Below, piece after piece: positions 10,984 through 28,493 of a stretch of 46,161 bases of DNA. The notes under the pieces were generated by a model, which did no database searches, was not told the origin of the DNA, and was given only the letters and a program-made list of their open reading frames with translations. The first letter of the stretch is position 1. The number at the start of each line of letters is the position of its first letter. The DNA comes from Candidatus Latescibacterota bacterium (lineage in GTDB: Bacteria; Latescibacterota; UBA2968; UBA8231), in contig JAYZCA010000101.1 in assembly GCA_036339235.1 (NCBI GenBank), forward strand, positions 1 through 46,161, written 5' to 3'. A program made the translations under genes and the position numbers.

Positions 10984-13900
10984 ATGAGGATGATACCTGC
11001 TGCGGTGGCTGCGATTGCCGTCGGGGTTATGGCCCTGGCGGCACCGGCCTTCGCTCGCGACGCAAGTCCGGCGCCGGCTGCAAAGGTGGCTCAGGACGAG
11101 CGTGCCTTCGGTCAGAGCTCGCTGGTGAACATCAACAATATGTCCTACTGGTTTGTGCGGGACGGCAACTCGGCCAACAACCCCGCCAACGGCAACTCGG
11201 GCGTAACCTTTCCGAGGTCGACGGATCAGGTCATCTACCAGGATGGCATGATCTGGGGTGGTATCGTCAACGACGGTGATGCGCAGACGCTGCGCGTCGG
11301 CGGTCAGACCTACGCCGTGGGCACCGTACCTGGCCTCATCGTGGGGAATGGCGTGGGTGAGGACCCGGCCGATCCCAGTGTCCGCATCTACCGCATCCGC
11401 AAAGACTATCGCTTTGCAGACCTCAAGCTGGATTACTCGGAATTGTTCAACTTGGGACTCAGCGAGGTGACCGACGCCGATGTGGCGGCCTTGCGCGCTC
11501 AGTACGACAAGGACTGGCGCGAGTGGCCCGCGGCCAAGGGCGCGCCTTTCTACGACAACGACGGGGACGGCGTCTACACGCCCGCCTTTGACGGCAACGG
11601 CGATCCCATCTTGGACGGCACCGCCGATCAGCCGGGTGTGGCCAACGCCGACATGGTGGCCTGGTTCGCCATCAACGACCTCGACGTCGGCGCCGCCACC
11701 AGCCTCTACGGTTCCAAGCCGATCGGCCTGGAGATCCAGATCACGATCTGGGGCTACGCCCGCACCGATGAGCTGGGTGACGTCATCTTCAAGAAGTACC
11801 AGGTCACCTACGAAGGCACGGCCACCACGCCGGACGACGCCGTCATCAACGACATGTATTTCGCGCAATGGTCGGATCCCGACCTCGGCGACTACGGTGA
11901 CGACTTCGCCGGCGGCGATGTCGAGTTGAGTCTCGGCTACGTATACAACGGGCAGGCAGACGACTCGCACTACGTCGGTTTTGGCCTGGCGCCGCCGGCG
12001 GCGGGGTATGATTTTCTGCAGGGCCCGATCGTTCCCGTCTACCTGAAGGACGATGCGGGCGCCAACCAGCTCGACGACGACGGCAACCCGATTCTCGACC
12101 TGAGCGCCGAGGCCATTTATAACTTCGGGAGGCGCCCGGGCTACAAGAACCTGCCGATGACGTCCTACGTATTCTTCGCTGCCGGCAGCGCCATCGGCGA
12201 TCCGGAACTGGGCGAATACGTGGGCACCGAAGAGTGGTACAACCTGCTGCGCGGATTCCAGCCGCAACCGGACATCAACAACCCCGTACCCTTCGTCAAC
12301 CCGCTCACCGGTGAGGAGACCAAGTTCACCCTCGACGGCGATCCCACGACCGCCGCCGGCTGGAACGACGGCATCCCGCTGCCCGCGGGCGACCGCCGCA
12401 TCGTTCTCGACACGGGCCCATTTACCATGGCCCTGGGTGACACTCAAGAGGTCGTGGTTGCCCTTCTTGGCGCCATCTCTACGGACCGGCTGCGCAGCGT
12501 GGCCAAGCTGAAGTTCACCGATCAGTTTGTGCAGGACGCCTACAACAGCTTCTTCCAGGTTGCGTCGCCGCCGGCGTCGCCGAATGTGCGCGTGGCGCAG
12601 CTGGATCAGGCCATCGTGCTGGATTGGGGCTGGAACCCGATCTCGGTGGCCGAGACCGAGAACGTGGCTTCACCCGGGTTCGAGTTCGAAGGCTACAACG
12701 TATATCAGAAGCCCGCAGCTGAATCCAGCCTCGATAACAGCGTCCTTCTGGGCACGTTCGATAAGGAGAACGGGGTTACCACGCTTCTCGGTATCGATCT
12801 GGATCCGGTCTCGGGAATCGTTCTCAACGTACCAAAACAGGTGGGCACCGACTTCGGCATCCGTCGGAACCTGACGATTACGAAGGACGCTGTCCGCGGC
12901 GGGCCGCTCGTCAACGGCCAGGACTACTACTTTGCCGTGACGGCCTACAACCGCGCCACCGGAGAGGCGTCGGCGGTTACGACTCTGGAGAGCCCCGGTC
13001 TGTTGCAGATCAGCAAGCCGCAAGATCCGCCCGTCGGCTCCCGGTATTCGTCGGATGCGGCGCAGGTCATTGCCGGCACTCACACAGCTGGCGCCAGCGA
13101 CGGCTCGGCGACAGCCACGGTAGTCGACCCGACCCAGACAACGGGTCATGACTACCAGGTAACCTTCGACACCGACGCCGACGGCAACGTCACGTGGTCA
13201 TTGAGCGACCTGACCATGAATGCGTCGCTTGTCACGGACCAGACCAATCAGACGGGTCAGGCAGTGTATATCGGTGCGGACGGCTTCGAGATCGCAGTCA
13301 ATGGCCCGCCCAACGGTATGAAGGCCTGGGGGGCTCCCGAGACGACCTTCGCGGCCAGCGGCCTCAGCCTCGCAGAATTCAGCGCTCAGTCCACCGGCAG
13401 CAGTGCCACTCGATGGTTTACGTGGGCCAACGCCGACTTCGGTACCGAGGGTTTCTCGGGCGCCATGACTGGCGACATCAATGGCAATTGGTTCGAGCCA
13501 TCTCCTGTGACCCCGGCGGATCTGCGCACCGTGGAACTGCGCTTTACCGCGGTGAACGAGGCGGAGGGAGAGGACCAGTACAAACCTCTGGATCTGGCCA
13601 ACGAAAACGTCTCCTACGCTTACCGATACCTGCGAGGAGCCGGGAACGACCCGCCGGCACAGGCTGACATGACCTCCACCGAAGCCCCATGGGACGTGAG
13701 CAAATACATCATCAACGCTGAGGGTCCGGGGGCCTACGTTTACCAAGAACGGGTGCCCATCGCCCTGTCGGCGTGGGACATCGAGGCTGATCCACCGCGC
13801 CGGCTGGCCGTCGGGTTCCTCGAAAACAACGCGCCCGGCGGGCTGGTGAACGGCGCCTATGGCCCGGCATTCTACAACACAGTAGGCAACGTCGCGGGAG

Positions 13901-14505
13901 ACGGTCCTCGTGAGTGGCTGTTCATCTTCGATGCGGACTACACCGAGTTGGGTAACAACAACTCGTTGCTGACCGATTTCGGCTTGCTGCCGAATGCCAC
14001 CGGCGATGCCACCGAGCCGATCATTCCGATCATGTGGGCGATCTTCGCGGGTCGGCGTATTCCCGATCGGTTCCCTCAGGACGGCTTCCAGTTTTTGCTG
14101 ATGGCCAACCACGTCAACACAGCCAGCGACGTGTTCAACATCAGCGTCGCAGGGGTTGAGACGTCGGACGCGTTCCTTGCGGAGGACATCAAAAAGATCA
14201 CCGCCTTCCCGAATCCGTACTTCGGGGTGAACTCGGCCGAAGTCAGCCGCTACAACCACTTCGTCACCTTCAGCCATCTGCCGAACAAGGTCTCGATTCG
14301 AGTGTTCGACCTGTCCGGCACGTTGGTGCAGCGGCTCGACAAGGACGACAACGATCAGTTCCTGCGCTGGGATCTGGACAATGAGAACGGTTTGCCCGTG
14401 GCCAGCGGCATGTATTTCGTGCACATCGACATGCCCGATATCAACAAGACGAGAATCCTGAAGCTGGCCGTCGTCGGCGAGCAGCAGTTCCTCGAGAATT
14501 TCTAA
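10984..14505 (+). CDS. large secreted/surface protein with Fn3-like region and T9SS-type C-terminal sorting domain
   Basis: RBS ggaaggaagagg lies upstream of ATG 10984, giving signal peptide MRMIPAAVAAIAVGVMALAAPAFA. ATG 10924 is an alternative start. C-terminus is AFPNPYF...VSIRVFDLSGTLVQRL...WDLDNENGLPVASGMYFVHIDM...KLAVV, the T9SS type A CTD pattern. Confidence 0.75.
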   Translation: MRMIPAAVAAIAVGVMALAAPAFARDASPAPAAKVAQDERAFGQSSLVNINNMSYWFVRDGNSANNPANGNSGVTFPRSTDQVIYQDGMIWGGIVNDGDAQTLRVGGQTYAVGTVPGLIVGNGVGEDPADPSVRIYRIRKDYRFADLKLDYSELFNLGLSEVTDADVAALRAQYDKDWREWPAAKGAPFYDNDGDGVYTPAFDGNGDPILDGTADQPGVANADMVAWFAINDLDVGAATSLYGSKPIGLEIQITIWGYARTDELGDVIFKKYQVTYEGTATTPDDAVINDMYFAQWSDPDLGDYGDDFAGGDVELSLGYVYNGQADDSHYVGFGLAPPAAGYDFLQGPIVPVYLKDDAGANQLDDDGNPILDLSAEAIYNFGRRPGYKNLPMTSYVFFAAGSAIGDPELGEYVGTEEWYNLLRGFQPQPDINNPVPFVNPLTGEETKFTLDGDPTTAAGWNDGIPLPAGDRRIVLDTGPFTMALGDTQEVVVALLGAISTDRLRSVAKLKFTDQFVQDAYNSFFQVASPPASPNVRVAQLDQAIVLDWGWNPISVAETENVASPGFEFEGYNVYQKPAAESSLDNSVLLGTFDKENGVTTLLGIDLDPVSGIVLNVPKQVGTDFGIRRNLTITKDAVRGGPLVNGQDYYFAVTAYNRATGEASAVTTLESPGLLQISKPQDPPVGSRYSSDAAQVIAGTHTAGASDGSATATVVDPTQTTGHDYQVTFDTDADGNVTWSLSDLTMNASLVTDQTNQTGQAVYIGADGFEIAVNGPPNGMKAWGAPETTFAASGLSLAEFSAQSTGSSATRWFTWANADFGTEGFSGAMTGDINGNWFEPSPVTPADLRTVELRFTAVNEAEGEDQYKPLDLANENVSYAYRYLRGAGNDPPAQADMTSTEAPWDVSKYIINAEGPGAYVYQERVPIALSAWDIEADPPRRLAVGFLENNAPGGLVNGAYGPAFYNTVGNVAGDGPREWLFIFDADYTELGNNNSLLTDFGLLPNATGDATEPIIPIMWAIFAGRRIPDRFPQDGFQFLLMANHVNTASDVFNISVAGVETSDAFLAEDIKKITAFPNPYFGVNSAEVSRYNHFVTFSHLPNKVSIRVFDLSGTLVQRLDKDDNDQFLRWDLDNENGLPVASGMYFVHIDMPDINKTRILKLAVVGEQQFLENF

Positions 14506-14536: not shown

Positions 14537-15577
14537 ATGACACGTAATTTCAAGATCGCCTCCGCGGCGCTGGCTCTGGTCCTGGTGGTGTGTGCCGCGG
14601 ACATGGCGCACGCTGCCGGCCAGAATCGAGCCGGCACAGCCAGCGCTACGGAACTGTTGATCCCCGTCGGGGCTCGGGACATGGCCATGGGAGGTTCTTC
14701 GGTAGCCACCACAACCGGACTCTCCGCCCTGTTCTGGAACCCGGCTGGATTGTCCCGGTCCGCCAATAACACCGATGTGATGGTGTCATCCATGTCGTAC
14801 CTGGCGGACGTCCGGGTAAACTACGTCGCCTTGGGCAGTCGCTTCACTTCCATCGGGTCCTTCGCGCTCGACATCAAGTCCCTGGACTTCGGGGACATTC
14901 CCATTACCACCGAAGAGCGACCGGACGGAACGGGTGGTACCTACACACCCACCTTCTTCACCGTGGGGCTGCACTACTCCCGGGCGTTGACCGATCGCAT
15001 TTCGGTGGGTGGAACATCGCACTACGTCGTCAACAAGATCGAGCGTGTCGACGGCACCGCCCTGTCCTTCAGCGCCGGTCTGCAATACAGTGACCTGGCC
15101 GAAATCGAAGGGCTCAACCTCGGTGTGGCGGTGAAGCACATCGGTCAGCGCATGCAGTACGACGGTGCCGGCCTGCTGCGTCGTGGTTCCCTCGACGACC
15201 TGCGCCGGCCGCCGTCGGACTACAAGGTGCAGTCTTCGTCGTCAGACCTGCCGTCGATTTTCGAGATCGGCCTCGGTTACCGCTACAATCCGGCCGGACT
15301 CGGTCAGGTCAACCTCTCAACGGTGTTCCGGCACAACAACTACACCTACGACCAGTACCGCAGCGGTGTCGAGTACGTGCTCAACGACATGTTCACGCTT
15401 CGTGGCGGCTTTGACGTGGCTGACGGTTCCGGAGACGATTATCTCTTCGGCACCAGTTTCGGCTTCGGCATTCAGAGCGACTTGGGCAGCTTCAAGGACG
15501 TGCGTGTGGACTACGCCTACACTTCAGTCGACCTGTTCGATGCTCTCAACACGTTTACCTTCCAGGTGGGCTTCTGA
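14537..15577 (+). CDS. PorV/PorQ (FadL-like) family outer-membrane barrel protein
   Basis: An aaggag RBS and a signal peptide ending AHA are present. N-terminal motif is ELLIPVGARDMAMGGSSVATTTGLSALFWNPAGLS. The protein has alternating beta-strand character and ends ...NTFTFQVGF. Confidence 0.7.
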   Translation: MTRNFKIASAALALVLVVCAADMAHAAGQNRAGTASATELLIPVGARDMAMGGSSVATTTGLSALFWNPAGLSRSANNTDVMVSSMSYLADVRVNYVALGSRFTSIGSFALDIKSLDFGDIPITTEERPDGTGGTYTPTFFTVGLHYSRALTDRISVGGTSHYVVNKIERVDGTALSFSAGLQYSDLAEIEGLNLGVAVKHIGQRMQYDGAGLLRRGSLDDLRRPPSDYKVQSSSSDLPSIFEIGLGYRYNPAGLGQVNLSTVFRHNNYTYDQYRSGVEYVLNDMFTLRGGFDVADGSGDDYLFGTSFGFGIQSDLGSFKDVRVDYAYTSVDLFDALNTFTFQVGF

Positions 15578-16607: not shown

Positions 16608-16633
16608 ACTAGAAAACAGGCAAGACGTCATTT

Positions 16634-16672
16634 GCTGCGGCGGGTCCATAGGATTCGCCGCAGCGTTTTTTT
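16634..16672 (+). terminator. rho-independent terminator between convergent genes
   Basis: GCTGCGGCG, a 13-nt loop, CGCCGCAGC, then G and a T7 run. It sits just after the TPR gene stop, and the T-run abuts the stop of the minus-strand gene. Confidence 0.6.
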
Positions 16673-17402
16673 ACATCACATGCAGCCAGTCGTCGAGTAG
16701 AAAGCTGATGCGGCCGATCAGCAACGACAGGCGGGCCATGATCGTGTAGCCGAAGGACGCCCCGAAAGAGACCATCAGGAACCAGATACCCAGTCGCGCC
16801 GCGTGTCCCACTGTCCCCGTGTGTTCTACCGAGAAGAAGAAGTAGACGAGGACCGTAATCACGCCGATGAGGACGAGGAGCAGGTTGAGACCTGCCCAAC
16901 TCATGCTCAGGGGCGCCAGACTTGGTTCGACCTGACCCAGCAGAAAGGATGACATGTAACGAGGAATGGTAAGGCCGGCGCCCACGCCGACGACGAAGGC
17001 GAAGGAGATCCGGCTCAGCCAGCCGAACTTGCTCGAGAAGCGGGTCAGCATCAGCAGGCCGAGAAGGGTGGGAAAGAGCAAGACCCACGGGTTGTGGCCG
17101 CCGCCGCTGGCACCCTCGGCGCCGATGTCGAAGTAGCTGACGAGGATCTCACCGTAGAGCGAGTTGTACCAGGTGATGCCGAAGATATAGGCCGCTGCGA
17201 CGCCGACGTAGACGTGCTCGGCAAACTTGAACAGCGGGTTGTCCTTGTACAGGAAGCTGTAGAGCGCCAGGGTGCAGCCGGCTGCGACGATGACGCCGAT
17301 GCCGTCCCAGTCGAGGGCCAGCACGCCGCTGGCCACGAGGCTGGCGTTGGCGACGGCGAACAGCCCGAGGAAGCCGATCAATACATAGCTGTCTTTGGTC
17401 AT
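16671..17402 (-). CDS. hypothetical polytopic membrane protein (last gene of minus-strand operon)
   Basis: RBS aaggggag lies upstream of the ATG giving MTKDSYVLIGFLGLFAV.... There are multiple hydrophobic segments. The opposite-strand ORFs are R/D/G-rich shadows. Confidence 0.65.
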   Translation of the reverse strand: MTKDSYVLIGFLGLFAVANASLVASGVLALDWDGIGVIVAAGCTLALYSFLYKDNPLFKFAEHVYVGVAAAYIFGITWYNSLYGEILVSYFDIGAEGASGGGHNPWVLLFPTLLGLLMLTRFSSKFGWLSRISFAFVVGVGAGLTIPRYMSSFLLGQVEPSLAPLSMSWAGLNLLLVLIGVITVLVYFFFSVEHTGTVGHAARLGIWFLMVSFGASFGYTIMARLSLLIGRISFLLDDWLHVM

Positions 17403-17415
17403 AACGGCGCTCCCC

Positions 17416-18246
17416 TTAGGCTTTTCCACCGCGACGACGGGTCGTGAAGTAGACCCCGTTGCCGAGCACGATGAAAAGGATGATGATGAGGTGGCTCACC
17501 GACTGCGGTTCCATACCGGCCGTGGCACTGCCCGGAGCCTCGATGAGGGTCTCGTATTCGGCGGCGCCGGCGAGCCCGCCCAGCAGACCGACGAGCTGTT
17601 TCGACTGCAGAAAGGGATACAGGTCGGGCGCCATCACGGCGGTACAGCCACCGGCAAACGGAAACCGGTGCTTCTCCTGGCCGAAGGGGATCCACCAGAA
17701 CTCCATCGAGTCGCCGGCGGCGAAGTCGAAGACGAAGGAGAAGTCCTTCAGGTTCCTTACGCCCTTCAGCACGGCCAATTCCCCCACCGGCGTACCTGCC
17801 GCGTCGAAGGGGAAGGTACCGGCCAGGCTCTGACCCAGATTCAGGACCACTGCCAGGTTGCCCGGCTTGTATCCAAGGAAGGCATAGTCGGCGCCGTACT
17901 CCATGCCAAACTCAACTGCCAACTCGTCCATGATCGGCTGAGCGATGCCGACGGCTTCGGGCCAAAGACAGATGCCGACGACCTTTCGACCGCGACTGAA
18001 CAGGTGCCGCAGGATGGCCCGCGTCATCGGCACCATTTCGGGCACGGTGCTGGCTCCGTAGGAGAAGCTGACGAGGACCGGTCGGTCGGCATCTTCGACG
18101 CTGATGCGTTCGATCTCGTCGTACACCGAGCGCACCGTCGGCGTCGGCTTGATCGGCAGGGGAATGTCGACCAGCAAGGGGATGGCGATACCCAGGAAGA
18201 TGAAGATGAAGATGATGCGGCGGTCGATGTTGATCAGGCGGTCCAT
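17416..18246 (-). CDS. hypothetical bitopic protein (N- and C-terminal TM helices flanking a ~200-aa soluble domain)
   Basis: MDRLINIDRRIIFIFIFLGIAIPLL... and ...HLIIILFIVLGNGVYFTTRRRGG. The start ATG shares a base with the upstream stop (TGATG). Confidence 0.65.
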   Translation of the reverse strand: MDRLINIDRRIIFIFIFLGIAIPLLVDIPLPIKPTPTVRSVYDEIERISVEDADRPVLVSFSYGASTVPEMVPMTRAILRHLFSRGRKVVGICLWPEAVGIAQPIMDELAVEFGMEYGADYAFLGYKPGNLAVVLNLGQSLAGTFPFDAAGTPVGELAVLKGVRNLKDFSFVFDFAAGDSMEFWWIPFGQEKHRFPFAGGCTAVMAPDLYPFLQSKQLVGLLGGLAGAAEYETLIEAPGSATAGMEPQSVSHLIIILFIVLGNGVYFTTRRRGGKA

Positions 18247-18902
18247 CAGTCACCTCCTCCGCCCAAATACGAGCGCTCGATACCGAAGATGATACGCAGC
18301 GACGTGGCGATGGCGCCGAGGCTGACACCCATCAGGATGCCACGCTTGGCAGCCATGTTGGGCACCGACATGAGCCATTGCATCGTATCGGGGATGACGT
18401 CAGAGATATAGGCGCCGATGGGCACGCGACCGAGCATGACTATGATCGCCGATACCAGCAGGATCGCCGCCTCCGGTGTCCGGGCTCGAAAGGTCCGGTA
18501 GGCGGCCGACGAGATGTAGAAGGCGAGCATGGAGAACATCGTCGCCGAACTGGCCACGTGGATGCTGGTGAACATCCACTGATAGGGCCCGGTCGTGGCC
18601 TGCGAAGTGAAAGGTCCATTGCCGTCGTTGTAGACGACGAAGAGAAACATCACGCCGAAGCTGATGTAAACGATGAGGCTGTAGGCCCACCCTGCCTGTC
18701 GTTGCCGGATCTTCGACCAGTGAAGACTGAGAAGGCTGACAAGGCCGAGGATATAGGCGAAAGCGTAGACCAGACGCAGCCACAGAGCGAACTCGCGCTC
18801 CACCGACTGAGCCCACTCGTGCGGGACATAGTAGATGGCGAATCCAGTCATGCCGAAGGCGAAGCAGAAGAGGAAGGGCAGGGTGCGTGTCATGAACAGC
18901 AT
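18246..18902 (-). CDS. hypothetical polytopic membrane protein
   Basis: An aggagag RBS is present and about 5-6 hydrophobic helices can be read (FLFCFAFGMTGFAIYY, LVYAFAYILGLVSLLSL, ...). I recognise no family. Confidence 0.65.
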   Translation of the reverse strand: MLFMTRTLPFLFCFAFGMTGFAIYYVPHEWAQSVEREFALWLRLVYAFAYILGLVSLLSLHWSKIRQRQAGWAYSLIVYISFGVMFLFVVYNDGNGPFTSQATTGPYQWMFTSIHVASSATMFSMLAFYISSAAYRTFRARTPEAAILLVSAIIVMLGRVPIGAYISDVIPDTMQWLMSVPNMAAKRGILMGVSLGAIATSLRIIFGIERSYLGGGGD

Positions 18903-18913
18903 CGGTCTCTCCT

Positions 18914-20116
18914 CTACAGGGCGGCGAACAGGTGAGTCAGAAAGTCGACGCCGAACGATGCTACCACCGTGCCGACGAAGAGGAGTCCGATGAGCAGCGC
19001 CTTGCCGACGTCCTGGCCCTTCAAGCTGCCGAGCAACTTCGGCTCCTTGGAGAGGTAGGCGCTGGCCGCGTAAAGCTCCTCACCCATGAGCGTGTAGTCG
19101 CAGGTCGTGACGAAAAAAGGCAATTGGGTATAGGCGTCTGTGCCGGCGATCTGGATGGCGCCGGTGGTACTACCCGTCTCGGCCAGCAACAGCGACTCGG
19201 CGTAGAAGTAACCCATCATGACATGCGCCGCCGGCCTCTCGCGGACCATCATGCCCGCCACGGCAGCGGCGTAGGAAAACTGTTCGGTGGCGGCCATGAA
19301 GACGCTGTCCGGGCGATAGGCGTCAGGACGTCCCTCCTTCAAGTAGGCCTCCTTCACCACCTCCTGGCTCACCGACATGACCACAGGATCGACGTTGGCG
19401 ACGCGCAGGTCGGTGTCGAAGCGCGCCGTGCGCTGGGCCACGCGCCCGAGGATGTTGACGGCGGCGATCGTCGGGATCTGGTCCATGCCCTTCAGGCCGT
19501 GAACGAACAACACCGACTTGCCCATCTCCGTCGCCCGCCCGAGGGCCTCGTCGAGCGCCTCCAGCCCGGCGATGCGCCGGATGAACAGGTCCTTGCGGCG
19601 GGCTATGGAGATGAAGAACAGGATACAGACGGACAGGCCGATGGTGAGGACGATGTTGTTCCACTTGGCCGTGTTGAACCAGTTGCCACCCGGTACGGCC
19701 GACGCCACCTCGCCGAGCACCTCACCCGTGGAGGTCTGCGCGCCGAGGCGGACGAAATAGAGGGTGCCGTCCTGCAAGGGAGCGGGCTCGTCGGTCTCTC
19801 CCACGGCATAGTCGGTGATATGGACGACGTGAAAGCGTTCGTTGTCGTCGTCGTAGCCGAACAGGGCCGGCTCACCCGACTTCAACCCGGGAGTCGCCGA
19901 TTCCACCGCCAGTCGGAAAGGCCCGTCGGCGGCCGTCGCCACATAGACGCGGTAGCCGGACACCACCGCTGTCTCGGCTCGTGGCCAGGTGATCGTCAGG
20001 CTGGCCCCGGCGTCGTTCGGTGTATCGAAGGCCACGATGTCGACGGGAACCTGGGCTCCGGCGGCGACATGGAGCGCCACGCCGGCGACTGCGATCCAAG
20101 ACGCGATCTTGCTCAA
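18914..20116 (-). CDS. hypothetical membrane protein: signal peptide, Fn3-like ectodomain, TM, ~230-aa cytoplasmic domain, C-terminal TM
   Basis: A TTG start at 20116 is preceded by aaggagag, giving MSKIASWIAVAGVALHVAAGAQ. The alternative GTG 20143 overlaps the upstream stop. LTITWPRAE..SGYRVYVA looks Fn3-like. TM helix NNIVLTIGLSVCILFFISIA is present. Confidence 0.65.
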   Translation of the reverse strand: MSKIASWIAVAGVALHVAAGAQVPVDIVAFDTPNDAGASLTITWPRAETAVVSGYRVYVATAADGPFRLAVESATPGLKSGEPALFGYDDDNERFHVVHITDYAVGETDEPAPLQDGTLYFVRLGAQTSTGEVLGEVASAVPGGNWFNTAKWNNIVLTIGLSVCILFFISIARRKDLFIRRIAGLEALDEALGRATEMGKSVLFVHGLKGMDQIPTIAAVNILGRVAQRTARFDTDLRVANVDPVVMSVSQEVVKEAYLKEGRPDAYRPDSVFMAATEQFSYAAAVAGMMVRERPAAHVMMGYFYAESLLLAETGSTTGAIQIAGTDAYTQLPFFVTTCDYTLMGEELYAASAYLSKEPKLLGSLKGQDVGKALLIGLLFVGTVVASFGVDFLTHLFAAL

Positions 20117-20139
20117 ACCGTCTCTCCTTGAATGGACAC

Positions 20140-21267
20140 TCACTCCTCGATCAACTCGACGTTGGCTCTGGGTACTACCGCCCGCGTGCCATCCTCGAAC
20201 TCCACTTCGAGAACGCGCACGGAGGCGCCGGATTCGACCTGCTGCAGGTCGGCGATCAGCCGCCCCACCGTGCCGATGCGGCCGAAGTAAGGCGCGCGGA
20301 TCACGCGCAACGCGTCGCCCTCGCCCATGCCGCCGCTGTGTCCGGCCTTAACGTCATCTGCCGGTGACTCGCGGTCGAGGTCAGGTACGATGATTTCGGG
20401 GCGCATGACACCGGCGCGAATCTGCGTCGCCCCCGACAGGGAGGCCTGTTGGCCGTGGCAGTGTGCGAGGATGTCGAACGTGCGGCGGGCCATGGCGATG
20501 CGGCCGAAGCCCTCGGTGAGGATGACCGTAAGGCCGATGTCTTCGGCGCCGGTGATGGCGACGCCGAGGTCGTAGCCGAGCAGCTGGCGCAGATCGCTGT
20601 CATGGATGCCGGCGCCGATCACGCCGCTGGCGCCTACCTGTCGCGCCTTGTCGATGGCGGCGTAGCTCGCCAGCCCGCTACCGACGACGATGTGCCCGGC
20701 GCACTGTGCGTCGATCGCATCGGGGTTGAGGTCCTGACCGGGACCGTCGCTGATCATGTGCAGCGGACCGCACGTCTCGTCGCCGACGCCGAAGATCCCC
20801 TGCACGAAGGCGCCGCGCGTCTCGACGACGACGCCTTCATCGGCGATGACTTCGACGATGTTACCATCGACGTAAGCCAGCACTTCGACTGGGAGAGGCG
20901 GCTCGCGCAGCAGCACCTGGCCGGTGACGCTGGAGATGCTCTCCAGCGTGCCCTCGATCTCGGCCTCGACGACGGTCTTGAACCACTTGATCAAGGGCCG
21001 CGTGGCGGCGATCACGTCCCCCTTGCGCACCGCGTCGCCCTCACTCTTGAGCATGAAGGTGGGTAGCTCATCGGCAGAGATCCCAAGGCGATTGATGACG
21101 TTCATGGTGCGCACGTTGCCAGGCAGCTCGGTGCGGGCCACGACCTGCTGACGCTGCACGGTGTCGCCCACCTGTCCCAGCACCTTACCCTGCATGGGCA
21201 GTCGCCGGGTCCGCCGCAGGACGGCATCGCGCGTAACCCGCAGGCCCGGTGTGTAGGCGTGGGCCAT
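20140..21267 (-). CDS. hypothetical protein with barrel-sandwich-like N-terminus and KOW-like C-terminal motif; partner of the GlmL-like ATPase
   Basis: The ATG lies 1 nt after the upstream stop. C-terminus GDALRVIRAPYFGRIGTVGRLI...VRVLEVEFEDG resembles a KOW/SH3-like motif. I recognise no enzyme family. Confidence 0.65.
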   Translation of the reverse strand: MAHAYTPGLRVTRDAVLRRTRRLPMQGKVLGQVGDTVQRQQVVARTELPGNVRTMNVINRLGISADELPTFMLKSEGDAVRKGDVIAATRPLIKWFKTVVEAEIEGTLESISSVTGQVLLREPPLPVEVLAYVDGNIVEVIADEGVVVETRGAFVQGIFGVGDETCGPLHMISDGPGQDLNPDAIDAQCAGHIVVGSGLASYAAIDKARQVGASGVIGAGIHDSDLRQLLGYDLGVAITGAEDIGLTVILTEGFGRIAMARRTFDILAHCHGQQASLSGATQIRAGVMRPEIIVPDLDRESPADDVKAGHSGGMGEGDALRVIRAPYFGRIGTVGRLIADLQQVESGASVRVLEVEFEDGTRAVVPRANVELIEE

Positions 21268-21268
21268 G

Positions 21269-23107
21269 TCAGGCTTCCTCCCCGGTGTCAGCGTAAAGCC
21301 CCAGGGCCTGGTTCCAGCGGGTCACGCACTCGCGCCTGGCGTCGTCGTCATCGGGCAGGTGGACCGGTCGTCCCCGGCCGTCGAGGATGAGCCCGACGAC
21401 GCCGCTGCGCACTCGTGTCCGCAGTTCCTGACCGGCTCCGGCTCCCACATCCCAGCCGCGGGCGGGTCGCAGGACCATCTCGCCTTCGACACCATCGGCC
21501 AGTGGGATCACTTCGAGGTCTCCATATCGCAGACTGCCCTGTATTCCGGGGGCACCATCGACCTCGAGGTCGTAGGTGACACATGCCTCGCCGGTCTTGC
21601 CGGATCCGCCCACGGGGGCGACGCAGGTGCCCAGGTACACGATGCAGTCGCGCTCGAACACGTCGGTGGCAGCCTTCTCATCGACCGAGGCAAGCACGCC
21701 CAGGTGGGGCATCATGAAGATGCTGTCCACCGCCAGCTGTGTGACGCCCTCGGGCTGGAAGGCATCGATGAGCATCGCTGTCGTCTGCGACCGCCGCGGC
21801 GCGTGCGACAGGACACCGCCGCTGCCAACCAGCAGATCGAGAGCCATCATGTCGATGAGGCTGTCGCCTGAGGCGGCTTGCTCGAACACGTCGGACAGGG
21901 TGCGCTCGGTCTGCACCCCCTTGAGCCCGACGGCTAGCGCACGGTGCTGGATGAGGGCAAGCCGCAGCGCCTCACGGGCGACGCCCTGCTCGATCTGCAG
22001 CTCCTCGAGCATCTGCGGGATCGTCGTGGGCCGGATCATCTTGTTTTTGATACGGTCGCGCAGGTCGGCTTCCTCGATGTCGATGGCGATCCAGCGCATG
22101 ACGTTGGCCATCGTCGCCTCGGCGAGCACGTTAGATATGCTGTAGGACATCCCGAGGTTGGCGCTCACGGTGCGGTTGAACACGGGTTCGGCGGAGAGGC
22201 CGTCGTCGCCGGTGGTAGAAAATACACTGAACACGTCGGTCGTGGCGCCGCCGATGTCGACACCGAGGACGTTGATATTCTGCCGGCGGGCAATGGTCTG
22301 CATGATCTGTCCCACCGCCGCCGGCGTCGGCATGATGGGCGCGCCGGTCCAGGACATGAGTTCGCGATACCCCGGTGCCTGGGCCATGACGTGTTCGAGG
22401 AACAGATCATGGATGACGTGGCGCGCCGGTGCGAGGTTTTCGCGCTCGAGAACGGGGCGAATGTTTTCCGACTGGTGCAGCGTCGTCCGGTCACCGAGAA
22501 CGCGCTCGACCTCAGACCTTGCATCCCGGTTACCGGCGAAGATGACGGGCAACTGGAAGCCGGTGCCGAACCGCGGGCGCGGGTCGGCGGCGGCGACGTA
22601 TTCCGCCAGTTCGACGACATGTGAAATCGTGCCCCCGTCGGTACCGCCGGAGAGCAGGACCATGTCGGGCCTCAGGTTACGGATGCGCTCGATCTTTTCA
22701 TGGGGCAGGCGGCCGTCGTTGGCGGCCAGCACGTCCATCACGATCGCCCCGGCACCCAGCGCGCAGCGCTGAGCACTCTCGCCCGTCATCGATTCGACGA
22801 CACCGGCGACCATCATCTGCAGCCCTCCGCCGGCACTCGATGTCGAAATGTAGATGTCGACGCCGCGCATTCCATCTGCGGGGGTGATAATTCGTTCGCC
22901 GTCGAGGATCTGTCGACCCGACAATTCCTCGATCTCCTGGATGGCGTTGAGCACACCGCGCGTCACATCTTCGAAGGGTGCCTCCACCGTGGTAGGGGCT
23001 TCGCCGCGACAGGTCTGTCGGTAGATGTCACCCTGGCGTTCGATGAGGATGGCTTTTGTCGTCGTGCTGCCGCAGTCGGTGGCGATGACGACATCCAGTT
23101 TACCCAA
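21269..23107 (-). CDS. GlmL/MutL-family (glutamate mutase L-like) ASKHA-fold ATPase, long form (612 aa)
   Basis: VVIATDCGSTTTKAIL, YISTSSAGGGLQMMVAGV, VLLSGGTDGG, LGVDIGGATTDVFS and LLVGSGGVLSHAP are the motifs I associate with Pfam MutL (PF13941). TTG start overlaps the upstream gene by 8 nt. Confidence 0.8.
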   Translation of the reverse strand: MGKLDVVIATDCGSTTTKAILIERQGDIYRQTCRGEAPTTVEAPFEDVTRGVLNAIQEIEELSGRQILDGERIITPADGMRGVDIYISTSSAGGGLQMMVAGVVESMTGESAQRCALGAGAIVMDVLAANDGRLPHEKIERIRNLRPDMVLLSGGTDGGTISHVVELAEYVAAADPRPRFGTGFQLPVIFAGNRDARSEVERVLGDRTTLHQSENIRPVLERENLAPARHVIHDLFLEHVMAQAPGYRELMSWTGAPIMPTPAAVGQIMQTIARRQNINVLGVDIGGATTDVFSVFSTTGDDGLSAEPVFNRTVSANLGMSYSISNVLAEATMANVMRWIAIDIEEADLRDRIKNKMIRPTTIPQMLEELQIEQGVAREALRLALIQHRALAVGLKGVQTERTLSDVFEQAASGDSLIDMMALDLLVGSGGVLSHAPRRSQTTAMLIDAFQPEGVTQLAVDSIFMMPHLGVLASVDEKAATDVFERDCIVYLGTCVAPVGGSGKTGEACVTYDLEVDGAPGIQGSLRYGDLEVIPLADGVEGEMVLRPARGWDVGAGAGQELRTRVRSGVVGLILDGRGRPVHLPDDDDARRECVTRWNQALGLYADTGEEA

Positions 23108-23465
23108 TACGTTCGTCTTCCTGTCGGTTGATGGTGTCGATAACCAGGTCCAGGCTGTGACGTCTTTCGAGCAGACGGATGAGCAGATCGGTTTCGGACT
23201 TGGAGAATGCCATGTTCAGCAGCGGGCCGAAGAAGGCCAGAAACTGGCTGCCGATGAAGCTGAGGGGCCGGGCGCTCTCCAGGGCCATCAGGGCCGGCGC
23301 CGCGAGGCGGCGGCGTACGACGATTCTGGAGAGGCGCTCGACTAAGGCGCGCTCCTGATCGGTGAAGTCCACCCCCGAGTCCACGGCGAAGGCGTAGGCG
23401 AAGGTGGCACGCAGGCGCTCAATCCGCGACATGGAGCCTGACCATAGCGTCGACGTCGTCGGCAT
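23100..23465 (-). CDS. small hypothetical protein (start uncertain: 23465 or ATG 23432)
   Basis: The ORF overlaps both flanking genes (8 nt downstream, 14-47 nt upstream), which suggests translational coupling. I recognise no family. Confidence 0.5.
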   Translation of the reverse strand: MPTTSTLWSGSMSRIERLRATFAYAFAVDSGVDFTDQERALVERLSRIVVRRRLAAPALMALESARPLSFIGSQFLAFFGPLLNMAFSKSETDLLIRLLERRHSLDLVIDTINRQEDERIG

Positions 23466-23913
23466 AGACGCCGTCGCCGAAACGCAGAAAGACGCCGCGG
23501 AAGGAGTCGAGACGGCTCTGATGACGGAAGGGGCTCAGGAAGATCCCGTCCGCGTGCCGCACGAAACGCCGGAACGTCGTCCACCGCCGCCGTCGCCACA
23601 CCAGCTGCTTCCAGGCGGCGCCATCGGCATCTATGACATACCGGGTCGGCAGAAAGTAGTCCATCGTCGCCAGGACCAGCACAACGACAGAAATCGCGCC
23701 GTACACCGGATTGCCGAGGCTGACCGTCATCACGGCGGCCGATCCGACGATCGCCGCGATCAGGGCGATCGACTTGATAGGTGGCTCCTCCCGCAGTGGG
23801 TGACAGGTCCACACACACTGCTGCGGACCGCCATCGGCGGGTTCCGGATGCTCCTGGGGTGGCGCGTCGTCCATTGTTTCGGGAGGCAGATCTATAGCTG
23901 AGGTCAGTGTCAC
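23419..23913 (-). CDS. hypothetical membrane protein (two TM helices followed by a basic beta-rich domain)
   Basis: IALIAAIVGSAAVMTVSL and YGAISVVVLVLATMDYF are followed by WKQLVWRRRRWTTFRRF. Start is GTG 23913 or ATG 23874. It lies 50 nt downstream of lysA. Confidence 0.55.
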   Translation of the reverse strand: MTLTSAIDLPPETMDDAPPQEHPEPADGGPQQCVWTCHPLREEPPIKSIALIAAIVGSAAVMTVSLGNPVYGAISVVVLVLATMDYFLPTRYVIDADGAAWKQLVWRRRRWTTFRRFVRHADGIFLSPFRHQSRLDSFRGVFLRFGDGVYADDVDAMVRLHVAD

Positions 23914-23963: not shown

Positions 23964-25232
23964 TCAGCGCAGAAACTCCGGGACCACCTCGTTCTGCAGG
24001 ACCTGCTCCAGTGTCTGCCGGCGACGGACGAGATGGAATGTGCCGTCACAGCCCAGCAGGACCTCGGGTGCCTCGGGAAAGGAGTTATAGTTCTTCGTGG
24101 ACATGGCGGCACAATAGGCGCCTGCTCCATCGATGACGATGGGGTCACCGATCTGTGCCACTGTGAGCGTGCGCGGCAACAGTCCTTCTGGATTGCCGGG
24201 CTCGGGGGTGAGGATGTCACCGCTCTCACAACAGTGCCCAACGACCAGATACTCCTTCGTCGATCGCTTCTCCGGTTCCAGGGGCAGTAGGATGATCGGA
24301 TGCTGGGCGCCGTACATACTGGGCCGGACGATCTCCGTCATTCCCGTGTCCGCCTTGATAAAGGAGTATCCCTCCTTGCCGGTGTCGACGATGTCGATGA
24401 CACTGGCCACAACGGCGCCTGCATTGGCGACAAAGAATGTTCCAGGCTCGATCTCCAGGTGTATCTGACGGCCGTCTTGGTCGGCAAATCTGCGCAGTTC
24501 CGCAGCGATGGGCTCACCGGCGCGCTGCAGGTCCGTCGAGACCTCCGTGCTCATGCGCCCCACCTTGTAGCCGCCACCCAGGTTCACCCTCGTCACTTCC
24601 GGCAGATGGCGGACGAGATTCATCGTCAAGCCCGAACAGCGCTGCCACACCTCCGGGTCGCTGCCCGAACCGATATGGGTGTGCAACCGGGTGATCTTCA
24701 GGTCGTATTCACGCGCCGTCCGGACAACGCGCTCGAGGTGGGTGTGCCAGATGCCGAAACTCGCCGACGGGCCGCCCACGTTGGTGCGGTTGCTGTGGCC
24801 GGAGCCCAGACCGGGATTGAGGCGGACGCTAACCTCCTGGCCCGGACACGCCTGTCCGAAGGCTACCAGCTGCGCCAGGGAGCAGGCGTTGAAACCGGTT
24901 CCCAGGCCGATCAGTTCGGCCAGATCCTCGGGGAGCTGCTGGGCTGTGAGCAGGATACGTTTGGCCGGCACCCCAGCGGCGATGGCCCGGTGCACTTCCC
25001 ACCCCGAACTGGCATCGATGTGCAGGCCCGCCTCGGTGAGCACTCTCAACACGGCGGCGGAGGGGCATGCCTTCATCGCGTAGCGCACGGTGAGGCCGAA
25101 GGGCGCTGGAAAGCCGAGGGCGACGGCAGCCTGGCGCTCCAGCGACGCCTGGTCGTAGACGAAGAGGGGGGTGCCGAACTCGGCCTGTAGCCGGCGCACC
25201 TGATCCTCGGAGAGAAAGCGGAAATTTTCCAT
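23964..25232 (-). CDS. lysA: diaminopimelate decarboxylase (Orn/DAP/Arg decarboxylase family 2)
   Basis: FGTPLFVYD, PLP-lysine context YAMKACP, HTHIGSGS and GHCCESGDIL motifs. Length is 422 aa. Confidence 0.75.
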   Translation of the reverse strand: MENFRFLSEDQVRRLQAEFGTPLFVYDQASLERQAAVALGFPAPFGLTVRYAMKACPSAAVLRVLTEAGLHIDASSGWEVHRAIAAGVPAKRILLTAQQLPEDLAELIGLGTGFNACSLAQLVAFGQACPGQEVSVRLNPGLGSGHSNRTNVGGPSASFGIWHTHLERVVRTAREYDLKITRLHTHIGSGSDPEVWQRCSGLTMNLVRHLPEVTRVNLGGGYKVGRMSTEVSTDLQRAGEPIAAELRRFADQDGRQIHLEIEPGTFFVANAGAVVASVIDIVDTGKEGYSFIKADTGMTEIVRPSMYGAQHPIILLPLEPEKRSTKEYLVVGHCCESGDILTPEPGNPEGLLPRTLTVAQIGDPIVIDGAGAYCAAMSTKNYNSFPEAPEVLLGCDGTFHLVRRRQTLEQVLQNEVVPEFLR

Positions 25233-25333
25233 GCCTGCCTAATGTCTCTATCTTGCTATTTTTATTGGGACTTGGTAGCTTCTCGACGCTTCAGATTATC
25301 GCCCTCGCCCCGCACATCGTCAAGACAGAGCCC

Positions 25334-27157
25334 TTGCCGCGCCACATTCTCGGCATCTCCGCCTACTACCACGACTCCGCCGCCTGTCTGGTCAGCGACG
25401 GGCGCATCGTGGCGGCGGCGCAGGAGGAGAGATTCTCACGCCGCAAGCATGACGCCCGCTTCCCGACTCTGGCGGCGAAGTACTGCCTCCAGGAGGCCGG
25501 AATCGGTGTGGACGACCTGGAGTGCGTGGGGTTCTACGACAAGCCGCTGCTCACCTTCGAACGCCTGCTGGAAACCCATCTCGGAACGGCACCGAAGGGA
25601 CTGCGCCTCTACTGGAAATCCATGTCGGTCTGGCTCAACCAGAAGCTGTGGATTCCACAGGAGGTTTGCCGGGGTCTCGGCGCCGATGTAAAGGTGCTGT
25701 TCGGCGAACACCACGAGTCCCACGCGGCGTCAGCCTTCTATCCGTCTCCCTTCGAGGAAGCCGCCATCCTGACGACGGACGGCGTCGGCGAGTGGACGAC
25801 GACGAGTTTCGGGTTTGGACGAGGGACCGAACTGCACACCCTGGCAGAGATCAAGTTCCCTCACTCCCTCGGGTTGCTCTACACGGCGTTCACCTACTTT
25901 ACGGGGTTCAAGCCGAATTCCGGCGAGTACAAGCTGATGGGCCTGGCACCCTACGGAGAGCCGAAGTACGCCCAGCGTATCCTCGATGAGATCGTGGCGC
26001 TCGCCGAGGACGGTTCCTTCCGCCTCAACCTCGACTACTTCAACTACGTCGCCGGCCTGACGATGACCTCCAGCGCCATGGACGCCCTGTTCGACGGCCC
26101 TGCCAGGAGGCCGGAGACGCCGCTGACTCAGCGCGAGATGGATATCGCCGCCTCCTGCCAGAAGGTGACCGAGGAGGTCCTGTTGCGCATGGCGCGCGCC
26201 GCGCATCGCGAGACGGGGATGAAAAACCTGTGCCTGGCAGGTGGTGTGGCACTCAACTGCGTCGGCAATGGTCGGCTCCTGCGCGAGAGCCCCTTCGAAA
26301 ACCTGTGGATCCAGCCCGCTGCTGGCGATGCCGGGGGCGCCGTAGGTGTGGCCCTGGCTCTCTGGCACCGCCACTTCGAGCAGCCGCGCAGCGCAGACCC
26401 GGATGGCGACTCGATGTCGGGTGCCTACCTGGGCCCGGCTTTCGCAGCCGACGAGATCGAGTCCTTCCTCGAGACACAATCGGCGCCGGCAGCGAGCCTG
26501 GGCGCCGATGAGCTATCCGTGCGTGTGGCCGAGATCCTCGCCGAGGAGAAGGTCGTGGGCTGGTTTCAGGGGCGTATGGAGTTCGGACCGCGGGCGCTGG
26601 GGGCGCGCAGCATCCTCGGGGATCCGAGATCGTCGGCGATGCAGTCGCAGATGAATCTCAAGATCAAGTACCGCGAGAGCTTCCGCCCCTTCGCTCCCAG
26701 CGTCCTGCGCGAGCACGTGGCAGACTGGTTCGAGATGGACTGCGATTCGCCCTACATGCTGCTGGTAGCCCTCGTGAAGCAGGAGAAGCAGATCCAGATG
26801 ACGGACGAACAGGATGCCCTGTTCGGGATCGACAAGCTGAAGGTGCCACGCTCGGAGATTCCCGCCGTCACCCATGTTGACTACTCGGCCAGGGTGCAGA
26901 CGGTACGCCGCGAGGTCAACACAGCCTACCACGATCTGATCCAGGCTTTCTACAGCCTCACCGGATGCCCCCTGCTGGTCAATACCTCCTTCAACGTCCG
27001 CGGCGAACCGATCGTGTGCACGCCGGAGGACGCTTACCGCTGCTTCATGCGCACCGAGATGGATTACCTCGTACTCGGCAACTTCCTGCTCGACAAGCGC
27101 GACCAGCCCGAATGGCTGGAAGAAGTCAGCTGGCAGGAAGAATTCGAGCTCGACTGA
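25334..27157 (+). CDS. carbamoyltransferase (NodU/CmcH family)
   Basis: ILGISAYYHDSAACLV..G.IVAAAQEERFSRRKHDARFP, EHHESHAASAF and LNTSFNVRGEPIV motifs. I prefer the in-frame TTG 25334, which gives MPRHILGIS. The tracked start at 25253 adds an atypical leader. Confidence 0.85.
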   Translation: MPRHILGISAYYHDSAACLVSDGRIVAAAQEERFSRRKHDARFPTLAAKYCLQEAGIGVDDLECVGFYDKPLLTFERLLETHLGTAPKGLRLYWKSMSVWLNQKLWIPQEVCRGLGADVKVLFGEHHESHAASAFYPSPFEEAAILTTDGVGEWTTTSFGFGRGTELHTLAEIKFPHSLGLLYTAFTYFTGFKPNSGEYKLMGLAPYGEPKYAQRILDEIVALAEDGSFRLNLDYFNYVAGLTMTSSAMDALFDGPARRPETPLTQREMDIAASCQKVTEEVLLRMARAAHRETGMKNLCLAGGVALNCVGNGRLLRESPFENLWIQPAAGDAGGAVGVALALWHRHFEQPRSADPDGDSMSGAYLGPAFAADEIESFLETQSAPAASLGADELSVRVAEILAEEKVVGWFQGRMEFGPRALGARSILGDPRSSAMQSQMNLKIKYRESFRPFAPSVLREHVADWFEMDCDSPYMLLVALVKQEKQIQMTDEQDALFGIDKLKVPRSEIPAVTHVDYSARVQTVRREVNTAYHDLIQAFYSLTGCPLLVNTSFNVRGEPIVCTPEDAYRCFMRTEMDYLVLGNFLLDKRDQPEWLEEVSWQEEFELD

Positions 27158-28270: not shown

Positions 28271-28360
<90 letters not shown>

Positions 28361-28383
28361 TTCACCTCGCACACGGTCGAGGT

Positions 28384-28476
28384 GGAGAGGTGACCGAGTG
28401 GTCGAAGGTGCACGACTGGAAATCGTGTGTAGCGTTTATAGCGCTACCGTGGGTTCGAATCCCACTCTCTCCGCCA
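28384..28476 (+). tRNA. tRNA-Ser (anticodon GGA)
   Basis: Acceptor GGAGAGG, anticodon stem-loop CACGA-CTGGAAA-TCGTG, long variable arm, T-arm GTGGGTTCGAATCCCAC and an encoded CCA. Confidence 0.9.
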
Positions 28477-28493
28477 TTTTCTACAAGTTCTGT

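Follow-up and report, generated by a model that had tools for sequence, protein, structure and literature searches.

An eight-gene cluster in a Latescibacterota genome

The stretch of DNA analyzed here (the window; 46,161 nt, contig JAYZCA010000101.1 of the Candidatus Latescibacterota assembly GCA_036339235.1) carries eight open reading frames (ORFs) in close succession on its minus strand, which we refer to as g1 to g8. The first, g1 (23419..23913), is a lineage-specific accessory gene encoding a small membrane protein of 164 amino acids (aa). The conserved core begins with g2 (23100..23465), whose product of 110-121 aa has no predicted transmembrane segment. It continues with g3 (21269..23107), which encodes a predicted ASKHA ATPase of the Pfam MutL family (612 aa), and with g4 (20140..21267), which encodes the 375-aa partner of g3. 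Four genes for membrane proteins complete the cluster: g5 (18914..20143), encoding a bitopic protein of 400-409 aa with an Fn3-like domain and a DUF6754 domain; g6 (18246..18902), a polytopic protein of 218 aa with about six transmembrane segments; g7 (17416..18246), a bitopic protein of 276 aa; and g8 (16671..17429), a polytopic protein of 243-252 aa with about seven transmembrane segments.

A preliminary description of this DNA, made from the sequence alone, had presented these ORFs as one tightly packed unit. All eight lie where it placed them and its junctions match ours: when the longest ORFs are used, the distances from g1 through to g8 are -47, -8, +1, -4, +11, -1, and -14 nt. Good Shine-Dalgarno sequences precede g4 (GGGGAGGAAG), g6 (GAGGAGAG), and g7 (GGAGGAGG), in line with its mention of several good ribosome binding sites. 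Gene calls in orthologs suggest later starts for three of the genes, namely at codon 12 of g2 (ATG at 23432, giving 110 aa), codon 10 of g5 (400 aa), and codon 10 of g8 (ATG at 17402, 243 aa). The eight are not chance ORFs, as dozens of genomes representing several phyla have orthologs of them in this order. Opposite them, the plus strand also has long ORFs; these are high-GC shadows that elsewhere recur only antisense to real genes.

Between g8 and a convergent TPR gene lies a GC-rich hairpin with a 15-bp stem (16633..16665), described earlier as the terminator at which the unit ends. The hairpin is real. Because its T-run is on the plus strand, with an A-run on the operon (minus) side, we assign it primarily to the TPR gene as its terminator; for the g1-g8 operon, it is at best a bidirectional terminator. 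At the other end, a co-directional diaminopimelate decarboxylase gene stops 50 nt upstream of g1, and the transcript in this genome may therefore begin further upstream.

The cluster recurs across at least seven phyla

To sample the cluster beyond this genome, one genome per GTDB species was scanned with two DUF6754 peptides. At least 584 species matched, and the best 80 loci from these species were examined (other counts given here use 81 or 82 loci). Hosts of the best 80 loci include Latescibacterota, Gemmatimonadota, Phycisphaerae, Nitrospira, Methylomirabilota, a metagenome-assembled genome (MAG) of Thermodesulfobacteriota, and the anammox Planctomycetota Brocadia, Scalindua, and Anammoxibacter. 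The order of the cluster recurs in 81 loci spread over at least seven phyla and set in unrelated flanks. With the DUF6754 gene g5 as the anchor, g5-g6-g7-g8 are collinear in 72 of the 74 loci with enough sequence; g5-g8 are also present in the remaining two, rearranged or duplicated. Directly upstream of g5 and on the same strand, g3 and g4 were found in 56 of 69 loci, including those of Latescibacterota, Gemmatimonadota, Scalindua, Phycisphaerae, Nitrospira, and Methylomirabilota. The preliminary description had proposed checking whether the ATPase pair and the membrane genes stay together in other genomes, and these counts show that they usually do. The families are also large, as g3, g4, and g5 each retrieve at least 8,000 clusters at 90% identity. 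The slowest-evolving gene of the cluster is g3, with identities of 62-88% across phyla (median, 71%).

The two genes at the head of the cluster are less uniformly retained. Orthologs of g2 occur in 53 loci; for g1, 36 of 81 loci yielded an ortholog (30-67% identity). Since g1 is missing from the Nitrospira, Scalindua, and Methylomirabilis loci (in Nitrospira locus L070, for example, it is absent upstream of g2), the distribution of orthologs defines a core of seven genes, g2-g8, with g1 as a lineage-specific addition. Thus, of the eight-gene unit described initially, g2-g8 hold as a conserved set and g1 falls outside it. The g1 protein has a transmembrane hairpin at residues 49-90, judged from hydropathy, followed by a basic C-terminal domain that may be PH-like. 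A pooled Pfam scan of g1 and g2 family members gave a single bPH_6 match (E = 0.014) and no consistent Pfam family among the g1 proteins, and window g1 had no match in Pfam, NCBIfam, or PADLOC. Similarly, no family was found for g2 in Pfam or NCBIfam, and none was assigned by PADLOC.

All-against-all clustering of the flanking ORFs of 82 loci yielded no recurrent family besides g1-g8 and genes for Opp-type transporters, which are described below. As no other flanking family recurs widely, we consider the unit to be self-contained. Searches of plasmids returned no homolog of g4 or g5, and PADLOC reported no defense system, its sole match being g2 at E = 0.032. The operon evidently tolerates interruption by transposases in individual MAGs: an IS200-like Y1_Tnp gene lies between g5 and g6 in one (L039, 9255-9713) and a DUF772 transposase lies within an opp insert in another (L007, 4037-5617). 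In a Nitrospirae MAG, two tandem Tll0287-like (PF11845) genes are found between g4 and g5 (L064, 2872-4396). We regarded single-locus inserts of this kind (the IS200 transposase, an MpaB-like oxygenase, and the Tll0287-like genes) as uninformative. We found no paper mentioning DUF6754, PF13941, or TIGR01319; the system is widespread and self-contained, and nobody appears to have described it.

g3 is a MutL-family ATPase that falls below the glutamate mutase models

The MutL domain of g3 (aa 7-488, nt 21644-23089) matches PF13941 over the entire model (positions 1-450 of 450; E = 2e-129) with a score of 432.6 bits, well above the gathering threshold of 27 bits. It is followed by an additional beta-rich C-terminal domain of approximately 120 aa (aa 489-612, nt 21272-21643). 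Among 54 orthologs, the motifs ATDCGSTTTK, VDIGGATTDV, and GSGGVLSHAP are at least 97% conserved. The phosphate-1 (DxGxT), phosphate-2 (DxGGxTxD), and adenosine (GxGG) motifs are intact, which makes g3 a predicted ASKHA ATPase and agrees with its initial description as GlmL/MutL-like. Secondary matches to Hydantoinase_A and Hydant_A_N are below threshold, and weak matches to MreB-like_C and FtsA (16-17 bits) are far below it. Sequence and profile searches of the PDB gave no significant match for g3.

The one statement on the family that literature searches turned up describes MutL/GlmL as a reactivating chaperone of glutamate mutase (PMC4682846). Public records name orthologs of g3 accordingly, as "methylaspartate mutase" or "glutamate mutase L" (NCBI) or as "TIGR01319 family" (JGI). 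Taken at face value, these names and the strong Pfam match would make g3 the GlmL of a B12-dependent mutase for glutamate, ornithine, or lysine whose genes lie elsewhere, and the neighbors of g3 would be unrelated to it. However, g3 does not reach the cut-off of any of the three GlmL-type NCBIfam models, its scores being 243.6 versus 475 bits for GlmL (NF040745, equivalog), 215.9 versus 600 bits for Or-4 (NF040744), and 179.1 versus 204.05 bits for TIGR01319 (subfamily). The ASKHA motifs and the full length of the Pfam model are common to g3 and GlmL, but g3 carries the extra domain of about 120 aa. The context differs as well. The preliminary description saw no mutase, B12-binding, or radical SAM gene here, and the absence of mutase and B12-binding genes extends to other genomes: neither clustering of the flanking ORFs of 82 loci nor Pfam scans of the neighbors revealed a B12 mutase or B12-binding family, and in none of 81 loci does g3 stand beside a mutase gene. 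Its constant neighbors are instead g4-g8; it is always accompanied by g4, to which it is sometimes fused, and usually by the four membrane-protein genes thereafter. The hosts also include aerobic nitrite oxidizers and anammox bacteria, neither of which is, to our knowledge, known for glutamate fermentation. Synteny effectively refutes the idea that g3 serves a distant mutase, and we give it almost no weight. Because the scores lie below the cut-offs of the very models concerned and no mutase is found nearby, the mutase names on g3 orthologs are best regarded as over-annotation, and as a systematic mis-annotation. In metabolic reconstructions, such names may wrongly imply B12-dependent glutamate fermentation.

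The actin-like fold of the superfamily raises a different possibility, that g3 polymerizes and that g5-g8 anchor it as part of a cytoskeletal or positioning system. By analogy, MreB-MreC-MreD-RodZ, FtsA, and PilM-PilN-PilO likewise combine an actin-fold ATPase with bitopic proteins bearing periplasmic domains and with small polytopic proteins, and the partners of g3 in the operon are bitopic and polytopic. The conservation of g3 across phyla is at a level typical of cytoskeletal proteins, and the weak MreB-like_C and FtsA matches point in the same direction. Those matches are far below cut-off, however, and the relation is at the level of the superfamily, with g3 on the hydantoinase/MutL branch, where we know of no filament former. 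In addition, g4 has no counterpart in these systems, and both fusion to a globular protein such as g4 and an extra C-terminal domain are atypical of polymerizing actins. We consider an anchored filament very unlikely.

g4 combines a putative barrel-sandwich hybrid region with a KOW-like tail

The AlphaFold2 model of g4 (predicted local distance difference test [pLDDT] score of 84) comprises a beta-rich N-terminal region, a central alpha/beta domain, and a small C-terminal barrel. The barrel (aa 315-375, nt 20143-20325) resembles KOW and SH3 folds. In Foldseek searches of the PDB, it aligned with Spt5 KOW domains at a target TM-score of 0.83-0.84 and a root mean square deviation of 1.3-1.5 Å over 59-60 columns, and with full-length NusG chains at a lower TM-score. 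Thus, the KOW-like tail that the preliminary description assigned to the 375-aa partner of g3 is also apparent in the predicted structure. The likeness is structural only, there being no Pfam KOW match in g4, and as a resemblance between modeled folds it implies no role in binding nucleic acids or the ribosome. Nothing but this tail was matched among the 50 best Foldseek results for g4, which contained no whole-chain, NqrA, or RnfC match. PDB sequence and profile searches with g4 gave no significant match either.

The N-terminal region contains a putative barrel-sandwich hybrid (BSH) hairpin at aa 73-117 (nt 20917-21051). Window g4 itself has weak matches to Biotin_lipoyl and RnfC_N that are far below threshold (13.2 bits for the RnfC_N/NqrA_N type), and in some orthologs, such as P0191 and P0161, BSH matches reach the Pfam cut-offs. 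For RnfC_N, P0191 reaches 26.9 bits (cut-off, 25.6 bits); scores for NQRA_N go no higher than 17-18 bits (cut-off, 25 bits). In NqrA and RnfC, a BSH domain is likewise followed by an alpha/beta domain and a small beta domain. As for those proteins, the gene for g4 lies just upstream of genes for bitopic and polytopic subunits. Unlike them, g4 has no conserved cysteine able to bind an iron-sulfur cluster and no iron-sulfur, FMN, or NADH domain family; g5-g8 gave no Rnf or Nqr match in Pfam scans; and the energy module here is an ASKHA ATPase rather than a dehydrogenase.

Two cofactor-based readings of g4 were considered and rejected. As a lipoyl or biotinyl carrier, g4 would be expected to display (A/V)MKM or DKA at its hairpin, where it has IKWFK; K97 is invariant in cluster-linked orthologs and is replaced in locus L090, Bacillota, Cloacimonadota, and Zixibacteria. 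A lipoate/biotin ligase gene adjoins the cluster in a single locus only. A motif resembling the SGAT sequence of covalent flavinylation proved to be conserved only as T-Q-I-R-A-G.

The central domain carries the conserved motifs EGFG and TQIRAGVxRP, which are retained out to Firmicutes. Invariant, enzyme-like motifs of this kind, together with the Hydantoinase_A and Hydant_A_N matches of g3, favor an explanation in which g3-g4 are a soluble enzyme of the hydantoinase/oxoprolinase type, with two components and dependent on ATP, whose substrate is a small and possibly peptide-derived metabolite. In that case, g5-g8 would be the transporter for this metabolite, sharing a pathway with the enzyme without forming a complex with it. 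HyuA/HyuB, acetone carboxylase, and caprolactamase similarly pair an ASKHA subunit with an obligate and sometimes fused partner. Nevertheless, g4 is unrelated to HyuB-type proteins and unlike any other known catalytic subunit, and in contrast to the operons of those enzymes, this one carries a membrane complex. Further evidence on this explanation comes from the membrane proteins and from the variants of the cluster.

g5-g8 encode membrane proteins outside characterized families

The g5 protein begins with a signal peptide, followed by an Fn3-like domain (aa 37-150, nt 19694-20035), a transmembrane segment (aa 163-181), and a second, C-terminal transmembrane segment (aa 383-401). DUF6754 (PF20539) extends over aa 153-405 (nt 18929-19687; E = 2e-116), scoring 388 bits against a threshold of 27. 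The Fn3 region is modeled by AlphaFold2 with a pLDDT of approximately 85-96 (residues 40-150), and its top Foldseek matches in the PDB are Fn3 domains (probability, 1.00; target TM-score, 0.55-0.70); no Pfam fn3 sequence match was found. The model and the predicted topology are thus consistent with a periplasmic Fn3-like domain in a bitopic protein; the preliminary description had such a domain exposed outside the cell. By the positive-inside rule, the DUF6754 domain is predicted to be cytoplasmic. This part is very highly conserved, and in a shallow alignment in which all sequences are at least 58% identical, its AlphaFold2 model has a pLDDT below 50, so that no fold could be assigned. A candidate B12-binding DxHxxG motif in DUF6754 was rejected, as alignments read by eye contain only F-x-H-G-L.

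The g7 protein has an N-terminal transmembrane segment, a domain of approximately 220 aa that the positive-inside rule predicts to be periplasmic, a C-terminal transmembrane segment with conserved Q, S, H, and N residues, and a basic tail. It is possibly a distant paralog of the C-terminal half of g5: hhalign comparison of the two sequences gave P = 0.019-0.08 in the same register as motifs recognized by eye. Nothing significant emerged from an all-against-all hhalign search for paralogy among the eight families. The polytopic proteins are marked by conserved motifs, SAAYRxFRxR on the cytoplasmic side of g6 and YSFLYKDNP, EH, and GASFGYTxMARxSLLIGR in g8. Topology prediction supports the earlier count of two polytopic (g6 and g8) and two bitopic (g5 and g7) proteins. 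The four membrane proteins of the preliminary description are therefore g5-g8, to which g1, with its transmembrane hairpin, has to be added.

None of these proteins could be placed in a characterized family, as the preliminary description had held. Of the two outcomes that it had named as refuting its reading, loss of co-localization in other genomes and membership of the membrane proteins in well-characterized families, neither was observed. Only DUF6754 was recognized in g5. Window g6, g7, and g8 had no match in Pfam, NCBIfam, or PADLOC, and 26-27 diverse orthologs of each showed no consistent Pfam family and no Rnf/Nqr subunit (RnfA/E, RnfD, or FMN_bind) at E values up to 1. PDB profile searches with g5 and g7 returned nothing significant. 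Isolated sub-threshold matches of g6 orthologs to ABC2_membrane_3 and TMD0_ABC involved one or two members each. We rejected an identification of g6 as PAP2, since the match (E = 3e-4) is below threshold and limited to the window protein, 1 of 26 orthologs. For the explanation that g5-g8 transport the substrate of a g3-g4 enzyme, it is a difficulty that no transporter family was matched. A further one is that known metabolite transporters do not resemble a very highly conserved, four-subunit complex that includes a cytoplasmic domain of approximately 200 aa and an Fn3 domain.

The ATPase pair and the membrane genes form separable modules

An exhaustive search with g3 returned 3,080 representatives at 50% identity, and 37 of the best 150 are 906-1,053 aa long. 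One of these, P0362 (995 aa), consists of a g3 segment (59% identical) followed by a g4 segment (43% identical, E = 7e-93) in a single chain. Similarly long representatives (931-1,003 aa) come from Ozemobacteraceae, Cloacimonadota, and Zixibacteria, and in those of Cloacimonadota and Zixibacteria, the presence of both segments was confirmed. Fusion of g3 and g4 into a single protein in other phyla implies that the two act as one unit. In locus L086, a fusion of this type lies between g2 and DUF6754 plus three membrane genes. The KOW-like tail is present in every form of g4 that has an adjacent membrane partner and is missing from the stand-alone fusions of Cloacimonadota and Zixibacteria. The Bacillota loci, among them that of the isolate Clostridium sp. 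"deep sea," have a g3-like gene, next a g4-like gene (448-451 aa), and then a gene for a small protein of 132-139 aa with four transmembrane segments, with no membrane quartet nearby. These small proteins have no detectable relation to g1-g8. Taken together, the gene arrangements indicate that g3-g4 are one functional unit of ancient origin, with a gene for a membrane partner habitually beside it.

The membrane module can also stand apart. In Brocadiaceae-type loci, g5-g8 form an operon of their own among housekeeping genes, and in locus L090, g2-g5 are together and g6-g8 are not found within 7 kb. As g5 stays with g6-g8 in the former and with g2-g4 in the latter, it appears to be the component that links both modules, or the hinge between them. 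Loci L069 (9109-12888) and L080 (9218-13295) each have a second DUF6754 gene behind a single g2-g4 set, along with extra unassigned ORFs that by position are divergent g6/g7/g8-like genes; this suggests that the membrane module was duplicated in tandem. In L090 (17576-20027), an mreB-mreC-(mreD-like) operon is found approximately 3 kb downstream of g5, a single case that is probably coincidental.

Two of the rival explanations turn on these variants. An enzyme with a separate transporter would account for g3-g4 occurring alone in Cloacimonadota and Zixibacteria and for the separability of the modules in Brocadiaceae. On the other hand, the Bacillota pair keeps a dedicated small membrane protein, and g5 tracks with either module. 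Alternatively, g3-g4 may be a reactivase-like chaperone comparable to GlmL, DdrA, or EutA that assembles, activates, or repairs g5-g8, which would then work without ATP. ASKHA and Hsp70-type ATPases are commonly remodelers. The modules, moreover, are usually but not always adjacent, and the founding member of the MutL family is described as a reactivator of glutamate mutase (PMC4682846). Yet no cofactor domain typical of a client was recognized in g5-g8, g3 falls below the GlmL model cut-offs, and a stoichiometric subunit is a better fit than an occasional repair factor to the 1:1 operon, to the fusion of g3 with g4, and to the extreme degree to which g3 is conserved. We rate the chaperone explanation as improbable.

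Neighboring genes hint at peptides

In 27 of the loci searched, the cluster is flanked by or interleaved with genes of the Opp type (SBP_bac_5, two BPD_transp_1 permeases, and two ABC ATPases). These loci represent at least two phyla and show at least four arrangements: oppA upstream of g1; oppABC between g3 and g4, in four Latescibacterota loci; oppDF immediately after g8, including two Anammoxibacter loci; and oppA upstream with oppBC downstream. Interleaved Opp genes are found in L007, L019-L022, L023, L027, L028, L030, L060, L061, L078, and L082, and in L082 a Tricorn-like protease gene follows oppDF. In one Bacillota g3-like (MutL) homolog, a peptidase M1 domain is fused to the protein. 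These are the only recurrent hints of a substrate, and they point to peptides. Some g4 orthologs carry an N-terminal PilZ domain, which suggests control of the unit by cyclic di-GMP in those lineages. The Opp, protease, peptidase M1, and PilZ features are all absent from the window itself.

In Anammoxibacter and many Latescibacterota, Opp/Dpp importer genes are interleaved with the cluster, which suggests that the two have a physiological theme in common. This interleaving could also be taken to mean that g6 and g8 are the transmembrane domains of a cryptic ABC transporter powered by OppD/OppF-like ATPases, with g3-g4 in a regulatory role. Consistent with this, an oppDF pair lies directly downstream of g8 (gaps of approximately 80-200 bp) in about ten loci, including those of Anammoxibacter and L082, with no oppABC in the retrieved flanks. 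However, none of g1-g8 matches ABC_tran or BPD_transp_1, no ABC permease family was found in 26-27 orthologs each of g6 and g8, and in most loci, the window included, there is no ABC ATPase nearby. Opp genes are likewise absent from most loci of other phyla. Complete oppABCDF sets elsewhere argue that these genes encode an ordinary Opp importer and are no more than linked to the cluster. A cryptic ABC transporter is in our opinion barely tenable. The links to Opp genes and to a peptidase M1 domain also fit an enzyme acting on a peptide-derived metabolite with g5-g8 as its transporter. Considering all of the points on both sides, we regard that explanation as unlikely, though it is the alternative that we take most seriously.

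A tentative model: an ATP-driven inner membrane machine

We tentatively favor the view that g2-g8 encode a two-module, ATP-powered inner membrane machine of an undescribed kind. In this model, g3 and g4, possibly with g2, would form one cytoplasmic ATPase unit, and g5-g8 would form a four-subunit complex in the inner membrane, with the Fn3 domain of g5 and the g7 domain facing the periplasm and DUF6754 facing the cytoplasm. The g3-g4 unit would dock on the cytoplasmic face, most likely on DUF6754 of g5 and perhaps through the KOW-like tail of g4, so that g5 would be the docking subunit between the modules. Powered by ATP binding and hydrolysis in g3, the g5-g8 complex would pass through a cycle of conformations and thereby move or process a substrate, either across the inner membrane or at it, with the periplasmic domains of g5 and g7 engaging the substrate or an envelope component. 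We infer the docking, the coupling of energy, and the peptide-related nature of the substrate from the arrangement and predicted features of the genes. The preliminary description spoke of an envelope-spanning complex; our data support only an inner membrane complex with periplasmic domains.

Several observations weigh against this model. Only synteny points to a physical coupling between the ATPase and the membrane proteins, and the characterized proteins nearest to g3 are not motors; they are soluble chaperones or enzymes. The g3-g4 fusion of Cloacimonadota and Zixibacteria has no membrane quartet within 10 kb, and in the Brocadiaceae-type loci, no g2-g4 genes lie within 8 kb of g5-g8. The insertion of oppABC between g3 and g4 in four loci is odd for a strictly co-translated pair. 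Finally, the Opp linkage that hints at peptides comes mostly from one phylum and is absent from the window.

A broader form of the model is slightly less likely still. It would hold that g2-g8 represent an unrecognized class of machine, distinct from ABC, AAA+, P-type, and rotary systems, in which an ASKHA ATPase with a BSH-KOW adaptor drives a four-subunit complex of novel families. Such a class would be ancient, would span at least seven phyla with Nitrospira and anammox bacteria among its hosts, and might translocate peptides or envelope components. If the coupling is real, membrane transport or assembly would be energized by an ASKHA ATPase acting on a dedicated membrane complex, and it would be so in organisms that are hard to study, such as nitrite oxidizers, anammox bacteria, Methylomirabilis, Latescibacterota, and Gemmatimonadota. 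The g3-g4 pair also reaches Firmicutes, where its small membrane partner is a different one, and this indicates a general role of the MutL family that is unrelated to B12 and has been overlooked. The cluster also gives DUF6754 a genomic context and defines unnamed families for g2, g4, g6, g7, and g8, together with the lineage-specific g1.

Other features of the window

The decarboxylase gene upstream of g1 (23964-25232, minus strand) encodes LysA (PDB 7jpj, E = 8e-140). Divergent from it is a gene of the carbamoyltransferase family (25253-27157, plus strand), with approximately 20 nt between the annotated starts. In Cloacimonadota locus L084, carbamoyltransferase and dnaX genes lie near the stand-alone g3-g4 fusion, which may reflect residual synteny or coincidence.

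On the other side of the cluster, a plus-strand gene at 14537-15577 encodes a PorV-like outer membrane protein of type IX secretion (PDB 6h3i PorV, E = 3e-7). Beside it are two very large plus-strand ORFs of 1,055 and 1,213 aa (7752-14505). The equivalents on a syntenic JGI contig are a PorV gene, a 1,108-aa protein with no assigned function, and a CarboxypepD_reg/OMP beta-barrel protein. The PorV-like gene and its neighbors point to a host of the FCB group (Latescibacterota/Gemmatimonadota-like) with a type IX secretion system.

The plus strand at 28271-28910 carries tRNA-Ser(CGA), tRNA-Ser(GGA), and tRNA-Ala(CGC) genes, followed by a signal recognition particle RNA gene. This RNA is of the bacterial large type (Rfam RF01854, 166 bits, full length, 256 nt), that is, the long form containing the Alu domain rather than the common small 4.5S type.

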